Both the position numbers and the translations under genes were made by a program. Positions 1-35,974 of a stretch of DNA of 64,000 nt are shown here, one piece after another (position 1 is the stretch's first letter; every line of letters begins with the position of its first letter). Source of the stretch: Dehalococcoidia bacterium (GTDB taxonomy: Bacteria > Chloroflexota > Dehalococcoidia > UBA2979); NCBI GenBank assembly GCA_965219085.1, contig OZ244720.1, positions 960,001 to 1,024,000 on the forward strand. Reading direction: 5' to 3'. The notes beneath the pieces are model-generated. The model was given only the letters and a program-made list of their open reading frames with translations. It searched no databases and was not told the DNA's origin.

Positions 1-1575
1 CGCCTCGCGTAGCAGCCGGAACACGGACTGCGTGATCGGCAGGTTGCGCTCCACCAGCGAACCCGAGCAGCCGACCCAGTAGAGGTACTCCTGCGTCCCG
101 TCGAAGATCGGGACGTCCTCGAAGCCGTCCATCCACGACTCGCGGGTGAGCGTGGTGCCGCGCCAGGGGTGGCCGCGCTGCTCGATGTTCTCGAGGGCGC
201 TCTGCGCCGCCGGGGGCACGCGCGCCTCGTTCATGACCAGGTAGCGGCGCATGTCGACGATGGTCGGGACGTGCTCGATCATCACCGGGCACTCCTGCAT
301 GCAGGCGCCGCAGGTGCGGCACGCCCACAGCGTCTCGTCCTTGATCACGTCACCGACCATCTCGATGGGTGAGACGGTGCGGACGTCGCCGTTGTCGTGC
401 CCCGCGGTCTGGAGGTCCGGACCCACCGAGGCGAGGTGCGCCTTCAGGTCCTGGATGAGGTGCATCGGCGATAGCGGCTGCCCCGCCAAGTCGGCCGGGC
501 AAACCTCGGTGCAGCGCCCGCAGCGCACACACGCGTCGAGTTCGAACAGCTGCTTCCAGGTGAAGTCCTGGATCTGCCCGACGCCGAACACCTCCTGCTC
601 CTCGATGTTCTCGATGGTGGCGAGGCGGCCAGGCTTGTCGGTGCGGAGGAGGAAGGCGTTCACCGGCGCGAACAGCATGTGGTCGAGCCGCGTGAAGACC
701 AGCATCCCGAGCCAGCCGAACGCGAGCAGGATGTGGCCCCACCACGCCCACGTGTGGGCGGTGAGCATATGGCCCTGCGTGGGACTGAAGATCCCGAGGA
801 ACTCGGCAATGCCCCACGACACGAACGACCAGCGCGCCCACTCCGGATGCGCCTCCAGGACCGTCCCGTCCTCCAGCACGAAGCCGTGCAGCTCCGTGGT
901 GTAGATGCGGAACGACTCCACGAGGAAGCCGGAGACCAGGATCAGCCCGAGCCCCACGATGATCGCGTGATCCTCGATGCGCTCATCCCAGCGGATGCGG
1001 TGGAAATCGTCGAAGTAGCGGCGGTACAGCGCCATCCCGACGCCGATCAGCCCGATCAGGCCGAACAGGTCGCCGTAGAACGAGAAGAACAGGTAGTACC
1101 AGCCGTGGAGGAAGTCGAGCGCCGTGTCGTCATCGATCGCCACCTGTGCGGTAACGAACGTGAGGACGATGATCGAGGAGAAGATGCAGAAGTGCATGAT
1201 CCCCGCGTAGCGGTCGCGGCGGATCTTCTCCTGCCCGATGCCCAGGCGCATCACGTTGCGCACCCGCACCGGGATCTCGCGCAGGATCCCCGGCGTCGGC
1301 TTGCCGATCGCCCACAGGGTGGCGTGGCGGCCGAAGCCGTAGACGAGGAGGCCGACGAGCCCGGCCAGCAGGATGTACACCGCCCACGGCTGGGCGACGT
1401 TGAAGAACACCTGCCGGTGGGCGTCGGTACGCTCCAGCTCGAAGGCGGAGATGAGCCCCAGGCCCGTCAGCCCGACGGCCGGACCCCACCACGCGCCAAC
1501 CAGGCGTGTACGCCTGAGTCGCCCGCCTGATGAGGCGGGCGACTCAGCACTTCTCTCGCGCTCGGATACGCTCAT
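1..1575 (-). CDS. FadF/HdrD-like membrane-bound Fe-S oxidoreductase (3' end runs off the window)
   Basis: Hand-translated from ATG 1575 (SD GAGGGG). N-terminal TM helices, two 4Fe-4S motifs (DACVRCGRCTEVCP; WACRTCGACMQECP) and the start of a CCG domain (YLYWVGC). Absent from the ORF track because it has no stop in the window. Confidence 0.85.
   Translation of the reverse strand, partial: MSVSERERSAESPASSGGRLRRTRLVGAWWGPAVGLTGLGLISAFELERTDAHRQVFFNVAQPWAVYILLAGLVGLLVYGFGRHATLWAIGKPTPGILREIPVRVRNVMRLGIGQEKIRRDRYAGIMHFCIFSSIIVLTFVTAQVAIDDDTALDFLHGWYYLFFSFYGDLFGLIGLIGVGMALYRRYFDDFHRIRWDERIEDHAIIVGLGLILVSGFLVESFRIYTTELHGFVLEDGTVLEAHPEWARWSFVSWGIAEFLGIFSPTQGHMLTAHTWAWWGHILLAFGWLGMLVFTRLDHMLFAPVNAFLLRTDKPGRLATIENIEEQEVFGVGQIQDFTWKQLFELDACVRCGRCTEVCPADLAGQPLSPMHLIQDLKAHLASVGPDLQTAGHDNGDVRTVSPIEMVGDVIKDETLWACRTCGACMQECPVMIEHVPTIVDMRRYLVMNEARVPPAAQSALENIEQRGHPWRGTTLTRESWMDGFEDVPIFDGTQEYLYWVGCSGSLVERNLPITQSVFRLLREA
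1514..1547. repeat. Perfect 15-bp inverted repeat inside the FadF-like 5' coding region
   Basis: CTGAGTCGCCCGCCT-gatg-AGGCGGGCGACTCAG. Confidence 0.9.
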
Positions 1576-3219: not shown

Positions 3220-3458
3220 GCCTGCACCCCTCTTCCGCGGCCGGCACTGTGTGCCGGCCGGGCTTGTTTCCCCGGGCGCGGCTGAGCCCGCGCCCTCATC
3301 TACGCTTCCCGTACGAGCGAGGCCGTTTGCCTTCCCCGCCACCTCCTGTGCGGCGCGCGAGTACCCGACCCGGTGCGCACCGAGGCGCGCTCAATATAAA
3401 GACGACGCGCCGCTGCTGCCAGAACCCTCAGGGCTGTTTACATCAGCGCGGTTCGTGC

Positions 3459-3487
3459 TTGTGATAACGAGTCAGACGTGTTATATG
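3459..3487 (+). promoter_or_regulatory. Possible sigma70-type promoter directly upstream of the structured RNA
   Basis: TTGTGA-17 bp-TATATG with TG extension, in an AT-rich patch; imperfect -10. Confidence 0.35.
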
Positions 3488-3489
3488 TA

Positions 3490-3593
3490 CAGGGACACGG
3501 TCGCTCCGGTGCGTACGGTACCATACCGAAGCGGTACTGTGTGACGGAGAGGGGTGAAACCCCTCGGACGGCAGTCTAAATCCTGTGTCCCTG
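3490..3593 (+). ncRNA. Unidentified structured RNA candidate (four-way junction)
   Basis: Closing stem CAGGGACACGG/CTGTGTCCCTG; long arm CTCCG..CGTACGGTACC/GGTACTGTGTG..CGGAG with several G-U pairs; hairpins GAGGGG-TGAAA-CCCCTC and GGAC-GGCA-GTCT (GNRA loop). Confidence 0.5.
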
Positions 3594-3630
3594 CCCGCGC
3601 AGCGTCCCCAACAACGGAGCGGCCCTGATC

Positions 3631-4011
3631 ATGCGTGATCGGGGCCGCTCGCTGTTCAGGATCGCGCTCCGCCTGCTCTGGCACCTCGCCCCTGTGCTCT
3701 TCGTGGGCGCCTACGCGCTGTTCATGTCCACGGGGCCGGCGGAGCGGTGGATTGTGGTGATCGCCCTCATCCTCGCCATCCAGGGCGCAGGTCTGCTGTA
3801 CAGATGGAAGTGGAGGGACAGCTCGCTACCACCGCCGAAACGGACCCTCAGGGACGCTCTGCTGATGGTCGTGATCGGGTTGAGTCTGGTGTTCTTGTTC
3901 ACTCCGGGCGGGCTCATGGCGAAGTACGCAGCCTCTGGTGCCTACGCGACAGTCGTGATCGGCCTGGTACTCATTGCCCGGCGGGTCACCGACTGGGAGT
4001 GGCTCAACTGA
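3631..4011 (+). CDS. Small hypothetical membrane protein (about 4 TM helices)
   Basis: 126-aa ORF with four hydrophobic segments; weak GGAG SD. Confidence 0.65.
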   Translation: MRDRGRSLFRIALRLLWHLAPVLFVGAYALFMSTGPAERWIVVIALILAIQGAGLLYRWKWRDSSLPPPKRTLRDALLMVVIGLSLVFLFTPGGLMAKYAASGAYATVVIGLVLIARRVTDWEWLN

Positions 4012-4121: not shown

Positions 4122-4196
4122 TGCACTCAGCCGGATTCGAACCTGCGACCTCCGAGGTGAGTAAGACCGGCGCTCTGTCCACTGAGCTACCACGGC
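4122..4196 (-). pseudogene. Degenerate tRNA-like element (tRNA-Val TAC-like)
   Basis: GCCGTGG-TA-GCTC-AGTGGACA-GAGC-G-CCGGT-CTTACTC-ACC(TC)GG-AGGTC-GCAGG-TTCGAAT-CCGGC. D arm and T loop are canonical; 2-nt insertion in the anticodon stem; no complementary 3' acceptor strand or CCA. Confidence 0.7.
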
Positions 4197-31831: not shown

Positions 31832-32530
31832 TTATGACGCCCTGGCGGGGGTCAGCTTGTAGCCGACGCCCCACACGGTCTCGATCTCAGCATCGGCGTC
31901 GTGCAGCTTCTCGCGCAGCGAGGCGACGTGGACGTTGATGGTGCGCGCATCGCCGTAGTAGTCGTGCCCCCACACCATCGAGAGCAGCCGTTCGCGGTCG
32001 AGGACCACGTTGGGGTGGCTGAGGAAGGCGTGCAGCAGGTCGAACTCGCGATGCCGCAACCGCACCAACTCGCCGGCGACGCGGACATCGCGGCTCGACG
32101 GATCGAGTTCGACGTTGCCGACCGTCACCATCGGGGCCGCCCGTTCGGGATCGTCGGACCGGTCCCAGTCGCGACGGCGCAGCGCAGCCTTCACCCGCGC
32201 GACCACCTCGCGAGGATTGAACGGCTTCGTGATGTAGTCGTCGGCGCCCATCTCCAGCCCGACCACCTTGTCGATGTCCTCGGAGCGCGCGGTCAGCATC
32301 AGCACCGGGACGTTCGACTCCTTGCGGATCTCGGCGCAGACGTCGAAGCCGCTGAGTTCGGGCATCATCAGGTCGAGCAGCACGAGGTCGGGCGACTGGT
32401 CGCGGAAACGCTGAAGCGCCTCGCGCCCGTCGCCGGCGGCGATGACCTCGTGGCCCTCGTTCTGCAGGTAGAGTCGCAGCAGGCGGACGATGTTGGGTTC
32501 GTCGTCGGCTACCAGAATCTTGGCGGGCAT
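31832..32530 (-). CDS. OmpR/PhoB-family response regulator
   Basis: ILVADDE, LLDLMMP, GADDYITKPF, winged helix ETVWGVGY. Confidence 0.95.
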   Translation of the reverse strand: MPAKILVADDEPNIVRLLRLYLQNEGHEVIAAGDGREALQRFRDQSPDLVLLDLMMPELSGFDVCAEIRKESNVPVLMLTARSEDIDKVVGLEMGADDYITKPFNPREVVARVKAALRRRDWDRSDDPERAAPMVTVGNVELDPSSRDVRVAGELVRLRHREFDLLHAFLSHPNVVLDRERLLSMVWGHDYYGDARTINVHVASLREKLHDADAEIETVWGVGYKLTPARAS

Positions 32531-32882
32531 AGTTGTTGGCCCACGCTTTCTCCGCTGGGCAATCGCCCTGCGGAAGCGGTGTAGGGGGTCGGCCCGGACG
32601 ACCCGCGAGCGGGTCTCCATCGCCACCGTTCGCAACCGCTCCCACCACCGTCATTCGCGACAACGCTGGCCGGGCGCGACCCCTTCGGATCTATCGTCGT
32701 CCCGAACCGTCATGCGGCCGCCATTCAAGTGTAAACAAAGTGTGATCGTCTCCGCGATTGCGCGCGAAACCGCGCCACCGCGCGACGAACGCGCAGTGGA
32801 GCGGCGCGTGCGAGCGCCCCTCACGGGCGTCGATCACCGGCCGGCGCAGTGCCGGCCGGGATGCGGTGTTGGAGCCCGGCGA

Positions 32883-33101
32883 CTAGAGGCGGAGCTTGCC
32901 GTGCGAGGGCTGGCGACGCCGCTGCTTACCGGCAGCGAGGCGCTCTTCCTCGAGCAGTTCCTGCGGGTCGGCGACCTCGGTCTCGTGGACATGCCCGCAA
33001 GCGATGCAGCTTGCGAACTTCCCGTACCAGTCGTCCTCAACGATCATGAGCCCGCTACAGCGCGGGCACCGATTAGGCGGCACACTAGTGATCACAGCCA
33101 T
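32883..33101 (-). CDS. Small zinc-ribbon protein (72 aa)
   Basis: CPRC-x16-CIACG with a basic tail; directly downstream of the riboswitch. Confidence 0.8.
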   Translation of the reverse strand: MAVITSVPPNRCPRCSGLMIVEDDWYGKFASCIACGHVHETEVADPQELLEEERLAAGKQRRRQPSHGKLRL

Positions 33102-33153
33102 ACCCTTGTGTAGGCGTCCAGGCCGGAATCCCTCCGGCTTGAGGCTGGATCGG

Positions 33154-33265
33154 TGCCGCCGGGGTTAGCTGACGGGTTCGGGTCGACCCAGTCTGACCCG
33201 CCCTCGCTAGAGGGTTCACCCCAAGAGGTGGTTCCCCCGGTTCCCGCCTGAGCGGGAATTAGGCA
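33154..33265 (-). ncRNA. Cyclic di-AMP (ydaO/yuaA) riboswitch
   Basis: Minus strand: TGCCTAATTCCCG..CGGGAA-CCGGGGGAACC..TTGGGGTGAACCC..GGGTC..GACCCGAACCCGTCAGCTAACCCCGGCGGCA, matching ydaO hallmarks (GGGGGAACC, GGGGUGAA, CCCGAACCCGUCAGCUAACCCCG). Confidence 0.9.
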
Positions 33266-33313
33266 GAGTGCACACGCACTCCAGACGTGCCGTCTTTTGG
33301 ACGACCGCTGCGC

Positions 33314-33341
33314 AGGATACCGATCGCAGCGCGTCTGTCAA
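33314..33341 (-). promoter_or_regulatory. Sigma70-type promoter of the riboswitch/zinc-ribbon transcript
   Basis: TTGACA-16 bp-TATCCT on the minus strand. Confidence 0.65.
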
Positions 33342-33469
33342 CTCCTTCACAATCGAATCTCGTCGATCGCTGCGGTGACCGCCCGCCGAGGCGTCCTCAT
33401 CTCGCGTCCTTACGTCGGCGGCGGCATACTGCCGGCACGAGTTGCCGTTCCTCATTGAGAGCGCCCGCA

Positions 33470-34582
33470 ATGTCCGAACTCTCGCCGGATGCGACGACCA
33501 TCGCCCGTACCGCCGCTGCGATCGGCCCGCTCGACCCCTCCGCTCGCGCTGCGGCCGAGGCGCGACAGGGCCGCCTCACGAAGCCGCCGGGCTCACTCGG
33601 CCGTCTCGAAGACCTAGCGACGCGCATCGCGGCGATGACAGGGCGCGACCGTCCAAGCCTCAACGCGCGGCTGATCGTCGTCGCGGCGGGCGACCACGGC
33701 GTGGTCGCGCAGGGCGTCTCACCGTACCCGCAGTCGGTGACGGCGCAGATGGTGGCGAACTTCGTGCGCGGCGGCGCGGCGATCAACGTCCTCGCCGACC
33801 ACGCGGGCGCGCGCGTGCGAGTCGTCGACGCCGGCGTGGCGACCGGGCTGCCGTCCGAGGTGGCCGACGACCCGTCGCTGCTGCGCCTCGGTCTCGGCCC
33901 GGGTACGGCCGACATCACCGCCGGGCCGGCGATGCCGCGGGAGGCGGCCGAACGCGCCGTCGCGGCCGGCATCGAACTCCTGACGGATGAGCGACGCGGC
34001 GACGGCGTCGACATCGTCGGTTGCGGCGAGATGGGCATCGGCAACACCACGTCCGCAGCCGCGCTGATCGCGGCAGTGACGGGCCACACACCTGCCGCGG
34101 TGACGGGCCGCGGCACCGGCGCGGACGACGCGACGTACGCGCGCAAGGTGCGCGCCGTCGAACGGGCGATCGAGGTGAACGCGCCGGACCCCGCGGACGG
34201 CATCGGGTTGTTGGCTTCCCTCGGCGGCTACGAGATCGGCGTGCTGGCCGGCGTGTACCTGGCGGCGGCCGGCGCGCGGGTGCCTGCGGTGATGGACGGT
34301 GTGATCTCGGGCGCGGCGGCGCTCGTCGCCGCGGCGATCGCGCCCGGCGTGGCGGACTACGTCATCGCCTCGCACCGCTCCGCCGAGCCGGGGCACCTCG
34401 CGGTTCTTGAGCGGTTCGGCCTCGATCCACTGCTCCACCTCGGGATGCGGCTCGGCGAGGGGAGCGGCGCGGCGCTCGGCATCTCGCTGTGCGTCGCGGC
34501 GTGCCGCCTGCTCGATGAGATGGCGACGTTCGGCGAGGCCGGCGTGGACGATTCAGACGCGGCTGTACCGCCCGAGGCGTAA
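33470..34582 (+). CDS. cobT: Nicotinate-nucleotide--dimethylbenzimidazole phosphoribosyltransferase
   Basis: LTKPPGSLGRLE, AGDHGV, GEMGIGNTT, MRLGEGSGA. Confidence 0.95.
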   Translation: MSELSPDATTIARTAAAIGPLDPSARAAAEARQGRLTKPPGSLGRLEDLATRIAAMTGRDRPSLNARLIVVAAGDHGVVAQGVSPYPQSVTAQMVANFVRGGAAINVLADHAGARVRVVDAGVATGLPSEVADDPSLLRLGLGPGTADITAGPAMPREAAERAVAAGIELLTDERRGDGVDIVGCGEMGIGNTTSAAALIAAVTGHTPAAVTGRGTGADDATYARKVRAVERAIEVNAPDPADGIGLLASLGGYEIGVLAGVYLAAAGARVPAVMDGVISGAAALVAAAIAPGVADYVIASHRSAEPGHLAVLERFGLDPLLHLGMRLGEGSGAALGISLCVAACRLLDEMATFGEAGVDDSDAAVPPEA

Positions 34583-34591
34583 GCTACCGAC

Positions 34592-35383
34592 ATGGGAGCA
34601 TCGCTGCGCTCACTCTTCACATCGGCGCCGATCGCCCTTGAGTTCCTCACCCCGTTGCGGCTGCGCCGGGTGCGCCGCTGGGACGACGCAACGTTCGCGA
34701 GCGCGCTCGGCTGGTACCCGGCGGTCGGCCTGCTGATCGGGCTGGTGCTGCTCGGGATCGATGTCGCCACCGAGGAGTTGCTGCCGGTCGGCGTGCGCTC
34801 CGCGCTGCTGGTGGCCGCGCTCGCCGTGCTCTCGGGCGGGCTACACCTCGACGGCGTCGCCGACACGGCGGACGGCATGGCGCTGCAGGGCGAACGCAGC
34901 GAGCGGCTGGGCGTGATGAGCGCCGGGAACGTCGGGCCCGCCGGCGCGATGGCGCTCGTGATCGTGCTGCTCGTGCAGTGGTCCGCCCTCTCGGCCCTCG
35001 CCGATCCGCTCCGCGCGGCCGCGCTCGTGCTGGCGCCGGCGATGGCGCGCTGGACGGTCGCGCCCGTCGCGGTGCTGTTCCGCTCCGCCCGCCCGCGAGG
35101 GCTCGGCGCGACGCTGCAGCAGGGTGTGTGGCCGTTCGCGGCGCCGCTCTCGGCGGTGATTGCCTTCGCCGCGGGCTACCTGCTGTTCGGGCCCGAGGGC
35201 CTCGTGCTGCCGGTCGCCGCCGCCGTCGCTGCGATCATCCTCGCCGGCGCAGCGTCGCGGATGATCGGCGGCGTGACGGGCGACACCTACGGTGGCGCGA
35301 TCGAGATCGCGCAGGCCGCCACGCTCATCGTCATCCTCGCCGCCGCCTCCCAGGGCTGGCTCGAACCCACCTTCCTCGAGTAG
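34592..35383 (+). CDS. cobS: Adenosylcobinamide-GDP ribazoletransferase
   Basis: FLT, GGLHLDGVADTADG, GGVTGDTYG. Confidence 0.92.
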   Translation: MGASLRSLFTSAPIALEFLTPLRLRRVRRWDDATFASALGWYPAVGLLIGLVLLGIDVATEELLPVGVRSALLVAALAVLSGGLHLDGVADTADGMALQGERSERLGVMSAGNVGPAGAMALVIVLLVQWSALSALADPLRAAALVLAPAMARWTVAPVAVLFRSARPRGLGATLQQGVWPFAAPLSAVIAFAAGYLLFGPEGLVLPVAAAVAAIILAGAASRMIGGVTGDTYGGAIEIAQAATLIVILAAASQGWLEPTFLE

Positions 35384-35407
35384 GCAGCGGACGGCGCGGC
35401 GCCCAAC

Positions 35408-35974
35408 ATGGCCGAGCTGTGGTTCGTCACGGGCGGCGCCCGCTCAGGCAAGAGCAGCTACGCCGAACGCCTCGCCTCCGCCACTGGCCGCGGCGTCGTC
35501 TACATCGCGACCATGGAGCCACTCGACGAGGAGCTTGTGCGTCGCGTTGCGGCGCACCGCGCCGCCCGGCCCGCCGGCTGGGAGACCGTCGAGGCGCCGC
35601 TCGACCCCGCAGGCGCCCTCGAGGCTGCCGATCCCGAGCGGTGCGTGTTGCTCGATTGCCTGTCGCTCTGGGTCGCGAACCGCATGGGGCCGCTCGGCGA
35701 TGCCCCGGCGCCCGACGATCTCGCCCAGCTCGAGCGCACGCTCGAGGCCGACGTCGCGCGACTCATCGACGCGGCGCGAGCCCGAAAGGGCGAGACGGTC
35801 GTCGTCACCAACGAGGTCGGGAGCGGGCTCGTGCCGCCGTACCCCCTGGGCCGCGCCTACCGCGACGTGCTGGGCCGGGTGAACCAGCAGGTCAGCGCCG
35901 CCGCCGACCGTGCGTGGTTGCTCGTGTCGGGGCGAGCGCTGGAGTTGCCCCCGGCGGGCCCGCCCGCCGCCTGA
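35408..35974 (+). CDS. cobU: Adenosylcobinamide kinase/guanylyltransferase
   Basis: GGARSGKSSYAE, LLDCLSLW, TNEVGSGLVP, YRDVLGRVNQ. Confidence 0.93.
   Translation: MAELWFVTGGARSGKSSYAERLASATGRGVVYIATMEPLDEELVRRVAAHRAARPAGWETVEAPLDPAGALEAADPERCVLLDCLSLWVANRMGPLGDAPAPDDLAQLERTLEADVARLIDAARARKGETVVVTNEVGSGLVPPYPLGRAYRDVLGRVNQQVSAAADRAWLLVSGRALELPPAGPPAA

Follow-up and report, generated by a model that had tools for sequence, protein, structure and literature searches.

Cyclic di-adenosine monophosphate (c-di-AMP), a major stress signal of bacteria and a second messenger central to the homeostasis of potassium, osmolytes and the cell wall, is sensed by a class of riboswitches, and the question raised by the present locus is why one of these should stand in front of a gene for a very small soluble protein. 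The locus lies in a 64,000-nt stretch (positions 960,001 to 1,024,000 of contig OZ244720.1, hereafter the window, whose coordinates are used below) of the 3.3-Mb, single-contig genome of a Dehalococcoidia bacterium, and the riboswitch and the miniprotein gene lie entirely on its minus strand. The regulon printed for this riboswitch class, as far as the available portions of the two sources go, comprises potassium and amino-acid transporters, cell-wall remodelling and osmotic shock functions (PMC7266159), as well as transporters, COG0791 and COG3773 (PMC3766115). The protein encoded here, a 70-aa soluble zinc ribbon matching no family at or above its cut-off, belongs to none of these transporter or cell-wall enzyme classes, which agrees with the first-pass annotation of the window, where it had been regarded as an output outside the usual targets.

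Our answer, to which we would give a probability of about 0.7, is that the locus is a self-contained, monocistronic c-di-AMP riboswitch unit for a small regulator protein of the zinc-ribbon type. The unit would consist of a strong sigma-70-type promoter, of the c-di-AMP riboswitch together with its expression platform, and of a cytoplasmic protein of 70 residues with a four-cysteine (C4) zinc ribbon. At low c-di-AMP the switch would release expression of the miniprotein, the ribbon and the acidic helix would display RQRRRQPSHGKLRL, the invariant peptide at the C-terminus, to a partner in the cell that is itself highly conserved, and the miniprotein would in this way relay low c-di-AMP to gene expression. 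The parts of the unit, in the direction of transcription, are as follows:

33346..33353, minus strand: ATTGTGAA box immediately 5' of the -35 hexamer, in a TGTGA-N6-TGACA arrangement
33314..33341, minus strand: promoter-like site with -35 TTGACA (33341-33336), a 16-nt spacer and -10 TATCCT (33319-33314)
33140..33275, minus strand: c-di-AMP riboswitch aptamer (RF00379, ydaO/yuaA class), a covariance-model match
33090..33151, minus strand: putative expression platform, from minimum-energy folds and covariation of the apical hairpin
33151-33143 and 33099-33090, minus strand: predicted basal helix of the platform, GAUCCAGCC paired with GGCUG-U-GAUC, covering the GUG start and enclosing the apical hairpin and a small hairpin that pairs the Shine-Dalgarno-like GGGU
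33138-33122, minus strand: apical hairpin of the platform, GCCGGA (33138-33133) and UCCGGC (33127-33122) with the loop GGGAU
33103..33107, minus strand: likely Shine-Dalgarno (SD) sequence AAGGG, 7 nt 5' of the GTG at 33095, a workable distance
32883..33095, minus strand: coding sequence of the 70-aa C4 zinc-ribbon protein with GTG start (72 aa in the form listed from the ATG at 33101)
33068-33057 and 33008-32997, minus strand: codons of the two zinc knuckles (CxxC pairs)
32927-32886, minus strand: last 14 codons, the invariant tail RQRRRQPSHGKLRL
32885-32883, minus strand: stop codon TAG
32837..32859, minus strand: 9-bp G+C-rich hairpin that follows the stop codon and lacks a U-run, CCGGCCGGC-ACUGC-GCCGGCCGG

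The aptamer and its signalling context

The ydaO-type aptamer recognised in the first-pass annotation was borne out by a covariance-model search, in which RF00379 matched 33275..33140 with 73.0 bits against a gathering score of 38 (E 5e-15) and at full length (model positions 1-134 of 134). The match ends 44 nt 5' of the conserved start codon, on the same strand and within the leader of the gene, and it is the only RF00379 copy returned by the covariance search of the whole genome. Judged by this match, the RNA is an ordinary member of the known c-di-AMP riboswitch class and is predicted to bind its ligand. A gene for a protein with a diadenylate cyclase (DAC) domain, looked for as a check on the same proposal, is also present in the genome (PF02457, 144.1 bits against a cut-off of 27, in a 302-aa open frame at G000:C1:192320-192670). 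Neither the DAC gene nor the single TrkH-type transporter gene of the genome has a riboswitch.

The gene, its start codon and its constraint

The open reading frame (ORF) as listed runs from 33101 to 32883 and encodes 72 aa, with CxxC at residues 12-15, 16 intervening residues and CxxC at residues 32-35. The ORF and the cysteine spacing given in the first-pass annotation therefore stand, but its length does not: homologues are mostly 70 aa long, the codon matching window position 33095 is ATG or GTG in 81/81 loci, and the codon of one close relative (L007) that is aligned with the ATG of the window is AAG, so the true start is almost certainly, from these alignments, the GTG at 33095. Relatives possess GGAGG, AGGAG or GAGG at the matching distance from the conserved start. 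The GGAGG of the window itself (33135-33131) sits inside the platform hairpin, 35 nt before the GTG and 29 nt before the ATG, and because of the 35 nt that separate it from the conserved start it is not taken for the SD site. The mechanism implied earlier, a hairpin masking GGAGG as the ribosome-binding site, is thereby abandoned, the GGAGG being instead a part of the platform hairpin.

A search of one genome per species, covering 185,579 species, gave 422 candidate stretches, 407 of which encode relatives of the protein, distributed over about 400 species genomes; the best 80 relatives all have labels of the Chloroflexi, Chloroflexota or Dehalococcoidia type. A word-index search returned 74 homologues, all unnamed or "hypothetical" except for one with the source name RNA-polymerase-subunit-M/TFIIS, and the few with an organism label are assigned to Chloroflexi or Chloroflexota, while a profile search of 1.84 billion representatives resulted in 1614 matches at E <= 1e-3 and 90 at E <= 1e-10. 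The features seen in the alignment are four cysteines, a conserved E-x-D within the first hairpin, a stretch of acidic residues and, following R or K, the invariant Q-R-R-R-Q-P-S-H-G-K-L-R-L. C32 and C35 are invariant across 29 alignment rows, and C12 and C15 are found in every row that reaches this far (the N-terminally short rows lack these columns). An AlphaFold2 model with a mean pLDDT (predicted local distance difference test) of 78 contains a three-stranded ribbon (residues 18-24, 27-32 and 42-44), a helix at residues 46-57 and a tail of low confidence, so that the zinc ribbon with an acidic helix and a basic tail, as described from the sequence beforehand, is recovered with its four cysteines, acidic stretch, arginine-rich tail and helix.

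Whether the ORF is conserved as a coding sequence, a point on which the first-pass annotation hung, is answered by the 407 related stretches and by a strong constraint on codons. Among 80 distinct coding sequences the codon differences at the three positions number 31608, 20225 and 90242, with the excess at the third position, and within the last 14 codons, which encode the tail, there are 15139 synonymous and 0 non-synonymous differences. Owing to this codon-position pattern and to the lack of any non-synonymous difference in the tail, the ORF is, as read from these comparisons, a translated gene whose tail is under extreme constraint. That the ORF should be non-functional, with the riboswitch being an orphan or acting on something else, is most improbable: a related family does have orphan RF00379 copies with no evident ORF behind them (in G348 and G480), but the codon pattern and the tail in effect refute the idea here, and the conserved start codon and SD, the confident fold model and the linkage to a riboswitch described below all speak against it.

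The genome itself yielded neither a paralogue nor another copy of the tail motif, and viral contigs yielded no relative. A virus-labelled look-alike cluster in a protein Atlas at 0.94 is a lead only, and PHROGs gave one weak match to a family of unknown function (E 0.0064).

Linkage of the riboswitch and the gene across genomes

The 80 loci closest to that of the window among the species-genome matches (hereafter the closest loci) and an even draw of 151 genomes from the class (the class sample) were used to follow the linkage; related genomes are not independent, so the counts are given as such and do not represent a statistical test. RF00379 is located directly upstream and on the same strand in 80/80 of the closest loci, with 50-94 bits. 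In the class sample, RF00379 is present in 56/151 genomes with 172 copies in total, and the full-length orthologue is present in 43 genomes, all of which are among these 56, and in none of the 95 genomes lacking the riboswitch; a 44th match (48 bits, without the tail) was set aside. The two elements adjoin in 33 of the 43 genomes (28 by coordinates and five by a direct Rfam scan), which means that the miniprotein gene lies behind 33/172 riboswitch copies of the sample. In a phylum-wide sample of 401 genomes, six genomes including this one gave full-length matches above 110 bits, and the other 34 matches covered the ribbon only.

The co-occurrence envisaged in the first-pass annotation is thus complete in the closest loci but not in the class sample, where ten of the 43 orthologues have no RF00379 nearby even at E 0.01, and this has to be held against the proposed unit as a property of the whole family. 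These ten make up two deeper clades with the ribbon motifs ESDAH and ERDWYGSY and with strong promoters of their own. The link between riboswitch and gene is strong but restricted to certain clades, and it is not universal in the family.

The same counts bear on another explanation, namely that the protein acts directly on c-di-AMP homeostasis or on the classical targets, by activating the DAC, inhibiting a phosphodiesterase or opening a potassium or osmolyte transporter, in a short feedback loop. Such a role would suit a gene confined to riboswitch-bearing genomes of the class sample (43/56 against 0/95) and forming the sole riboswitch target here, with the TrkH-type transporter and DAC genes free of riboswitches, as well as a class regulon that, in the available part of the source, is classically concerned with potassium and osmolyte uptake (PMC7266159). 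Nevertheless, at none of 113 compared loci does the gene adjoin a DAC or a transporter gene, its recurrent neighbours being an ABM-like gene, response regulators and divergent cobTSU genes. The homologues fused to additional domains (see below) bear a helix-turn-helix (HTH) domain and not transporter or cyclase domains, and the co-occurrence may only reflect a shared clade, given that the genomes are related. We consider a homeostatic role decidedly unlikely.

Separate observations concern four genomes of the family f22. In G348 and G480 the sole RF00379 copy is an orphan (L141 1128-1294, plus strand, and L143 3225-3384, minus strand), followed by 230-400 nt without a convincing ORF and then by a convergent enoyl-CoA-hydratase-like gene, and in G445 and G495 the single RF00379 copy likewise does not adjoin the miniprotein gene. 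All four genomes have this gene at another site, where no riboswitch accompanies it. An action of the f22 orphan riboswitch in trans on the miniprotein mRNA was rejected, as the duplex values of -98.8 and -88.7 compare with -95.6 (standard deviation 4.7) and -89.4 (standard deviation 5.3) for shuffled sequences.

Direction and mechanism of the switch

A terminator stem with a U-run after the aptamer is the usual design of OFF switches, and the characterised c-di-AMP riboswitches are of the OFF type. In nine more distant riboswitch-bearing orthologues (L086, L088, L120, L122, L127, L131 and L133-L135) a terminator hairpin with U6-8 comes directly after the aptamer. By analogy with both these orthologues and the characterised members of the class, the unit is very probably an OFF switch as well, the protein being made at low c-di-AMP.

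The lineage of the window differs from these orthologues in lacking the U-run, and the platform here consists of the basal helix and the apical hairpin listed above, the latter being the GCCGGA/TCCGGC hairpin already noticed at first pass. The apical hairpin, CCGGN-GGGAU-NCCGG in general form, shows two-sided changes in 27 cells of an alignment of 44 related sequences compared to 10.4 in shuffles, and 0/500 shuffles reach 27. In the minimum-energy fold of the full leader (-104.4 kcal/mol, z -3.15) the aptamer and the start-covering helix coexist. On these models there is an even chance that the bound state acts in this lineage through the helix, which would bury the SD and the GUG start.

Several results count against this account of the switch. 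The G residues of the SD and of the start codon are paired at a probability of 0.95-1.0 without any ligand term, no convincing ON conformation was found, and holding both the SD and the start open takes 11.6 kcal/mol. When the platform is folded by itself, the SD stays free in many relatives, for which reason SD masking was rejected as a general model for the family. The start-covering helix displays no covariation, being identical in the close relatives L003-L009, and the platform has no U-tract, with 0 terminator-like sites.

Part of this evidence can be read in favor of transcription being halted by the platform hairpin, either as a U-less terminator or with the help of Rho, in which case the start-covering helix would be incidental. 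The apical hairpin and the preceding CAG(G)CCC box hold the position that the terminator stem has in the U-run-bearing distant orthologues, the hairpin is conserved also in clades whose SD is unpaired in the platform fold, and the helix over the start, identical as it is in L003-L009, gives no covariation in its own support. This explanation has to accommodate the missing U-run after the hairpin, the pairing of start and SD at 0.95-1.0 in the ensemble and, furthermore, contigs from RNA libraries that cross from the aptamer into the ORF, so that read-through molecules do exist; we regard it as a possibility to be kept in mind but rather doubtful. For this lineage, the choice between start occlusion and U-less or Rho-type termination is about even.

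Promoter and transcript start

The TTGACA-16-TATCCT promoter proposed at first pass is present at 33341..33314 and is the sole promoter-like site in 32400-33700, where shuffled sequence gives a mean of 0.1. Its architecture, TTGAC[AG]-16..18-[TC]AnnnT, is kept in 79/80 of the closest loci. A [TC]GTGA[AC] box within 16 nt before the -35 hexamer occurs in 20/80 of these loci and in 3/10 of the riboswitch-less loci, and a TCACA[AG]/TCACGA word within 30 nt after the -10 hexamer in 71/80 and 9/10, respectively. The loci L021-L082 carry, about 5-45 nt past the -10 hexamer and thus at the transcript start, a locus-specific CTTGTYGTCACAATCACGA followed by its imperfect inverted copy, and L010-L020 have a compensated version of the element, GTCACAAnCCA...TGGnTTGTGAC. 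The 11-mer at the transcript start has one copy per genome in 4/5 genomes and three in the fifth, with 0 for the reversed-pattern controls. The GTCACAATCAC sequence has been lost from the window's own lineage, which retains only the ATTGTGAA box before the -35 hexamer (33353-33346). As far as its sequence tells, the inverted element at the transcript start may be an operator or a 5' RNA hairpin.

An inverted element of this kind fits, among other things, with the protein being an RNA or ribosome binder whose arginine-rich tail docks on ribosomal RNA or on a hairpin of its own leader, adjusting translation or its own expression at low c-di-AMP and, by implication, at low potassium. The tail is basic and absolutely conserved, as expected for an invariant contact with nucleic acid, a consensus promoter in 79/80 loci suggests an abundant product, and weak ribbon matches to the ribosomal proteins eS31 and eL43 exist. 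At the transcript start, GTCACAATCAC with its imperfect inverted copy, the TCACA[AG]/TCACGA word in 71/80 loci and the near-single occurrence of the 11-mer per genome, with controls at 0, point in the same direction. On the other hand, the protein matches no ribosomal-protein or RNA-binding family of Pfam or NCBIfam, and the GTCACAATCAC sequence is missing precisely in the lineage of the window. The non-basic half of the tail, QPSHGKLRL, is equally invariant, which is more like a peptide docking on a protein, and the fused homologues bear an HTH domain of the DNA-binding type. An RNA-binding role is accordingly rated as unlikely.

A possible role of the protein in transcription

A tail so completely frozen implies an equally frozen surface on its partner, and the consensus promoter suggests that the product is abundant. 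We lean to a role in transcription because of three lines of evidence, namely the sub-cut-off similarity to TFIIB, RPB9 and TFS ribbons, the homologues fused to an HTH domain and the response regulators downstream, receiver-domain regulator genes being found downstream on the same strand in 48/80 of the closest loci. From these sequence comparisons, a tentative suggestion is that the partner is the transcription apparatus or a DNA-bound HTH regulator.

With regard to the first line, all matches in Pfam and NCBIfam (TFIIB, DUF5817, topoisomerase, RPB9 and TFS ribbons) are below the cut-offs, with 23.8 bits against 29 for PF08271, 15.4 against 25.2 for PF02150 and 14.1 against 64.75 for TIGR01384. 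The miniprotein does have the cysteine layout of PF08271, two knuckles of two cysteines each around a sheet of three strands, and this family also appears in the precomputed annotations of a minority of the homologues listed. A sequence search of the PDB gave the TFIIB ribbon 1pft as the best match (E 0.0057), with the ribosomal proteins eS31 and eL43 among the weak ribbon matches.

As for the second, distant homologues have the ribbon and the tail at their C-terminus, behind extra N-terminal sequence. One of them, P0113, was modelled from an alignment of eight sequences, and its N-terminal domain (pLDDT 85-91) aligns best to region 4 of sigma factors or to the HTH domain of LuxR/NarL regulators, which occupy 22 of the top 24 rows with Z 4.6-5.7. 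A sigma-4- or LuxR-like HTH nature of the fused domain is therefore suggestive at the level of the model. For the binding to RNA polymerase or nucleic acid that the first-pass annotation considered possible, such fusions are the one indirect support. Only one of the ten distant homologues that were looked up, P0136, has an organism label, and it is archaeal. Longer forms obtained by the word-index search amount to two proteins, neither of them informative.

These indications have to be set against a number of contrary points. The Z scores of P0113 are below 6, a range that is common by chance, and come from a single model built on eight sequences; the Sigma70_r4 matches of the fused homologues in Pfam (E 0.03-0.07) are below the cut-off; and a fusion indicates a shared process and is not proof of contact. 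The model of the miniprotein itself gave nothing at E <= 0.001 in Foldseek against the PDB (best E 0.066), and a wide structure search with VIA-align found generic ribbons only, with a best Z of 2.9. The Foldseek search with the fused-homologue model likewise gave nothing at E <= 0.001. A predicted complex of sigma-A residues 405-505 with the miniprotein scored 0.03 against a mark of 0.32, a value that counts neither for nor against binding.

In its most far-reaching form, the proposal would make the miniprotein a novel effector that acts globally in c-di-AMP signalling: falling c-di-AMP would trigger a burst of the protein from its consensus promoter, the tail of which docks on RNA polymerase, on a sigma factor or on a regulator of the sigma-4/LuxR type and reprograms transcription, the miniprotein being a stand-alone version of the module that is fused to a sigma-4-like domain in distant relatives. 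This combination, taken as a whole, is improbable at present.

Comparison with known systems

Compared to the RF00379 riboswitches of the Bacillus subtilis type, the unit shares the full-length aptamer, its position in the 5' leader on the same strand, the presence of a DAC and, in distant orthologues, the terminator platforms, and it differs in the zinc-ribbon target, in the platform without a U-run in this lineage and in being the sole copy of this genome. With the TFIIB, RPB9 and TFS ribbons (PF08271, PF02150, TIGR01384), which provide the best sequence matches, the miniprotein has in common the two CxxC knuckles and the three-stranded ribbon, with its acidic E-x-D located in the hairpin between strands 1 and 2, but its scores are below the cut-offs, Z does not exceed 2.9, the protein is bacterial and stands alone, and the acidic helix and the basic tail have no counterpart there. 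The fused homologues (P0113, P0121, P0093, P0122 and P0146; profile E <= 1e-12) have the same ribbon, acidic stretch and [RK]RRQP[ST]HGK..L tail, and differ by at least one helical domain added at the N-terminus.

Both models find their best structural match in ZifS (TTHA0897; PDB 8yoz), a bacterial zinc protein of about 77 aa from Thermus thermophilus that likewise stands alone, although the match is not significant (Foldseek E 0.066, Z 2.9, root-mean-square deviation 5.0 A over 57 residues, 21-25% identity). A full-text literature search for ZifS found no paper, so no functional lead could be derived from it. CsfB/Gin, RbpA and DksA/TraR, small proteins that bind zinc and associate with sigma factors or RNA polymerase, resemble the miniprotein in size, zinc core and a charged extension, which in their case contacts a conserved machine. 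They may serve as a lead; no sequence or fold match to these proteins appeared in the general searches, none of which was aimed at them.

A parallel of another kind is the yjdF motif RNA, a riboswitch candidate whose associated genes nearly all encode a single protein without a known function (PMC4793209). Both cases would represent an RNA sensor dedicated to one uncharacterised family of small proteins; in the present one, as compared with that text, the class of the ligand is known, the protein is uncharacterised and the tie is clade-specific (33/43). The full-text literature search returned no paper linking a c-di-AMP riboswitch to a zinc-ribbon protein or to Dehalococcoidia, and the gene lists of Nelson 2013 and Block 2010 may name the gene as hypothetical.

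Extent of the unit and neighboring genes

The hairpin after the stop codon retains its stem with different loops in L003, L005 and L008 and probably marks the end of the transcription unit; an RNA-library contig (X10 record 1) ends at 32836, right after it, although the end of a contig does not prove a 3' end of RNA. Four sponge metatranscriptome runs, all belonging to one study, contributed Logan contigs that are identical to the window at 95-99% or more and lie on 32836-33292, and individual contigs join the aptamer to the ORF (33009-33286, 32947-33237 and 32870-33110). Since assembled contigs cannot prove RNA ends and a carry-over of DNA is possible, they are described here as consistent with a read-through molecule containing the leader and the ORF. 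There were no contigs on 32500-32835 or 33293-33500, which, coming from one study, shows neither transcript ends nor silence.

In the window and in L003-L009 an OmpR-type regulator gene and a HAMP histidine kinase gene come next downstream, and in L010-L020 the downstream neighbor is cimA-like and convergent. At every locus that has the regulator-kinase pair, a conserved leader of its own, about 190 nt long, precedes it, even where 0.5-1.5 kb separate the pair from the miniprotein gene. Its membership in the riboswitch operon was rejected on account of this leader and of the genes that stand between the two in those relatives. As the downstream gene varies among close relatives and the pair has a leader of its own, the miniprotein gene is, by comparison of the loci, monocistronic here.

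The leader of the regulator-kinase pair (window 32747-32560, minus strand) is found in 11/11 aligned orthologous loci and forms in prediction a 12-bp long-range helix around an invariant 19-mer, with 8/21 predicted pairs changed on both sides. Its parts are the following:

32735-32727, minus strand: promoter-like TTTACACTT
32683-32670 and 32597-32585, minus strand: helix arms
32648-32630, minus strand: invariant GUGGUGGGAGCGGUUGCGA

No Rfam family corresponds to this leader, a search of 32450-32900 with E up to 5 giving only a chance microRNA row, and on the alignment it is a candidate for an undescribed cis-regulatory RNA of a two-component operon. A CsrA-like small ORF (MLILTRK...), recognised by eye only, is located 5' of the regulator leader in L021, L030, L046, L055 and L079.

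In 33/80 of the closest loci the miniprotein gene is followed on the same strand, 40-220 nt downstream, by a gene for an ABM-like (ferredoxin-like) protein of about 100 aa (e.g. L023 3359-3661 and L057 about 3410-3725), with a Pfam ABM match below the cut-off (E 0.008); one of the riboswitch-less loci, L125, has it too. A search with one query did not recover it from the genome of the window, and the 350-nt gap holds no remnant of it; in other lineages it may share an operon with the miniprotein gene. A small cysteine-bearing ORF (C-x-H-H-W ... C-x-x-C-G; e.g. L057 3857-4222) without a Pfam match separates the ABM-like gene from a NarL-type regulator gene in 13/80 loci. On the other side, the unit is flanked by divergent cobT-cobS-cobU-like genes (window 33470-35974, plus strand), cobT-like genes being found in 44/80 loci. 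A cobalamin riboswitch is present on the cob-gene side in many relatives, and none at or above the gathering score was detected by the Rfam scan of the window. Elsewhere in the window, a tRNA-model match at 4122-4196 (minus strand; 30.4 bits against 29) with several non-canonical pairs in the acceptor stem may, by its sequence, be a degenerate or unusual tRNA.

Significance

A sensor of an established class is coupled here to a novel type of output: a c-di-AMP riboswitch stands before a conserved zinc-ribbon family, which points to an undescribed branch of the signal. The regulon of this riboswitch has so far been read as transporters and wall enzymes, and in a large block of Dehalococcoidia, abundant uncultured bacteria, the target gene followed here encodes the miniprotein instead. 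The unit offers a small handle on this branch of c-di-AMP signalling, made up of one RNA, one miniprotein and one 14-residue peptide, and gives a functional lead for about 400 genes that are at present "hypothetical". If the partner is the transcription apparatus, c-di-AMP would be linked to global gene expression by an undescribed route, and this would be the first c-di-AMP riboswitch to control a factor binding the transcription machinery and not a transporter or a wall enzyme.

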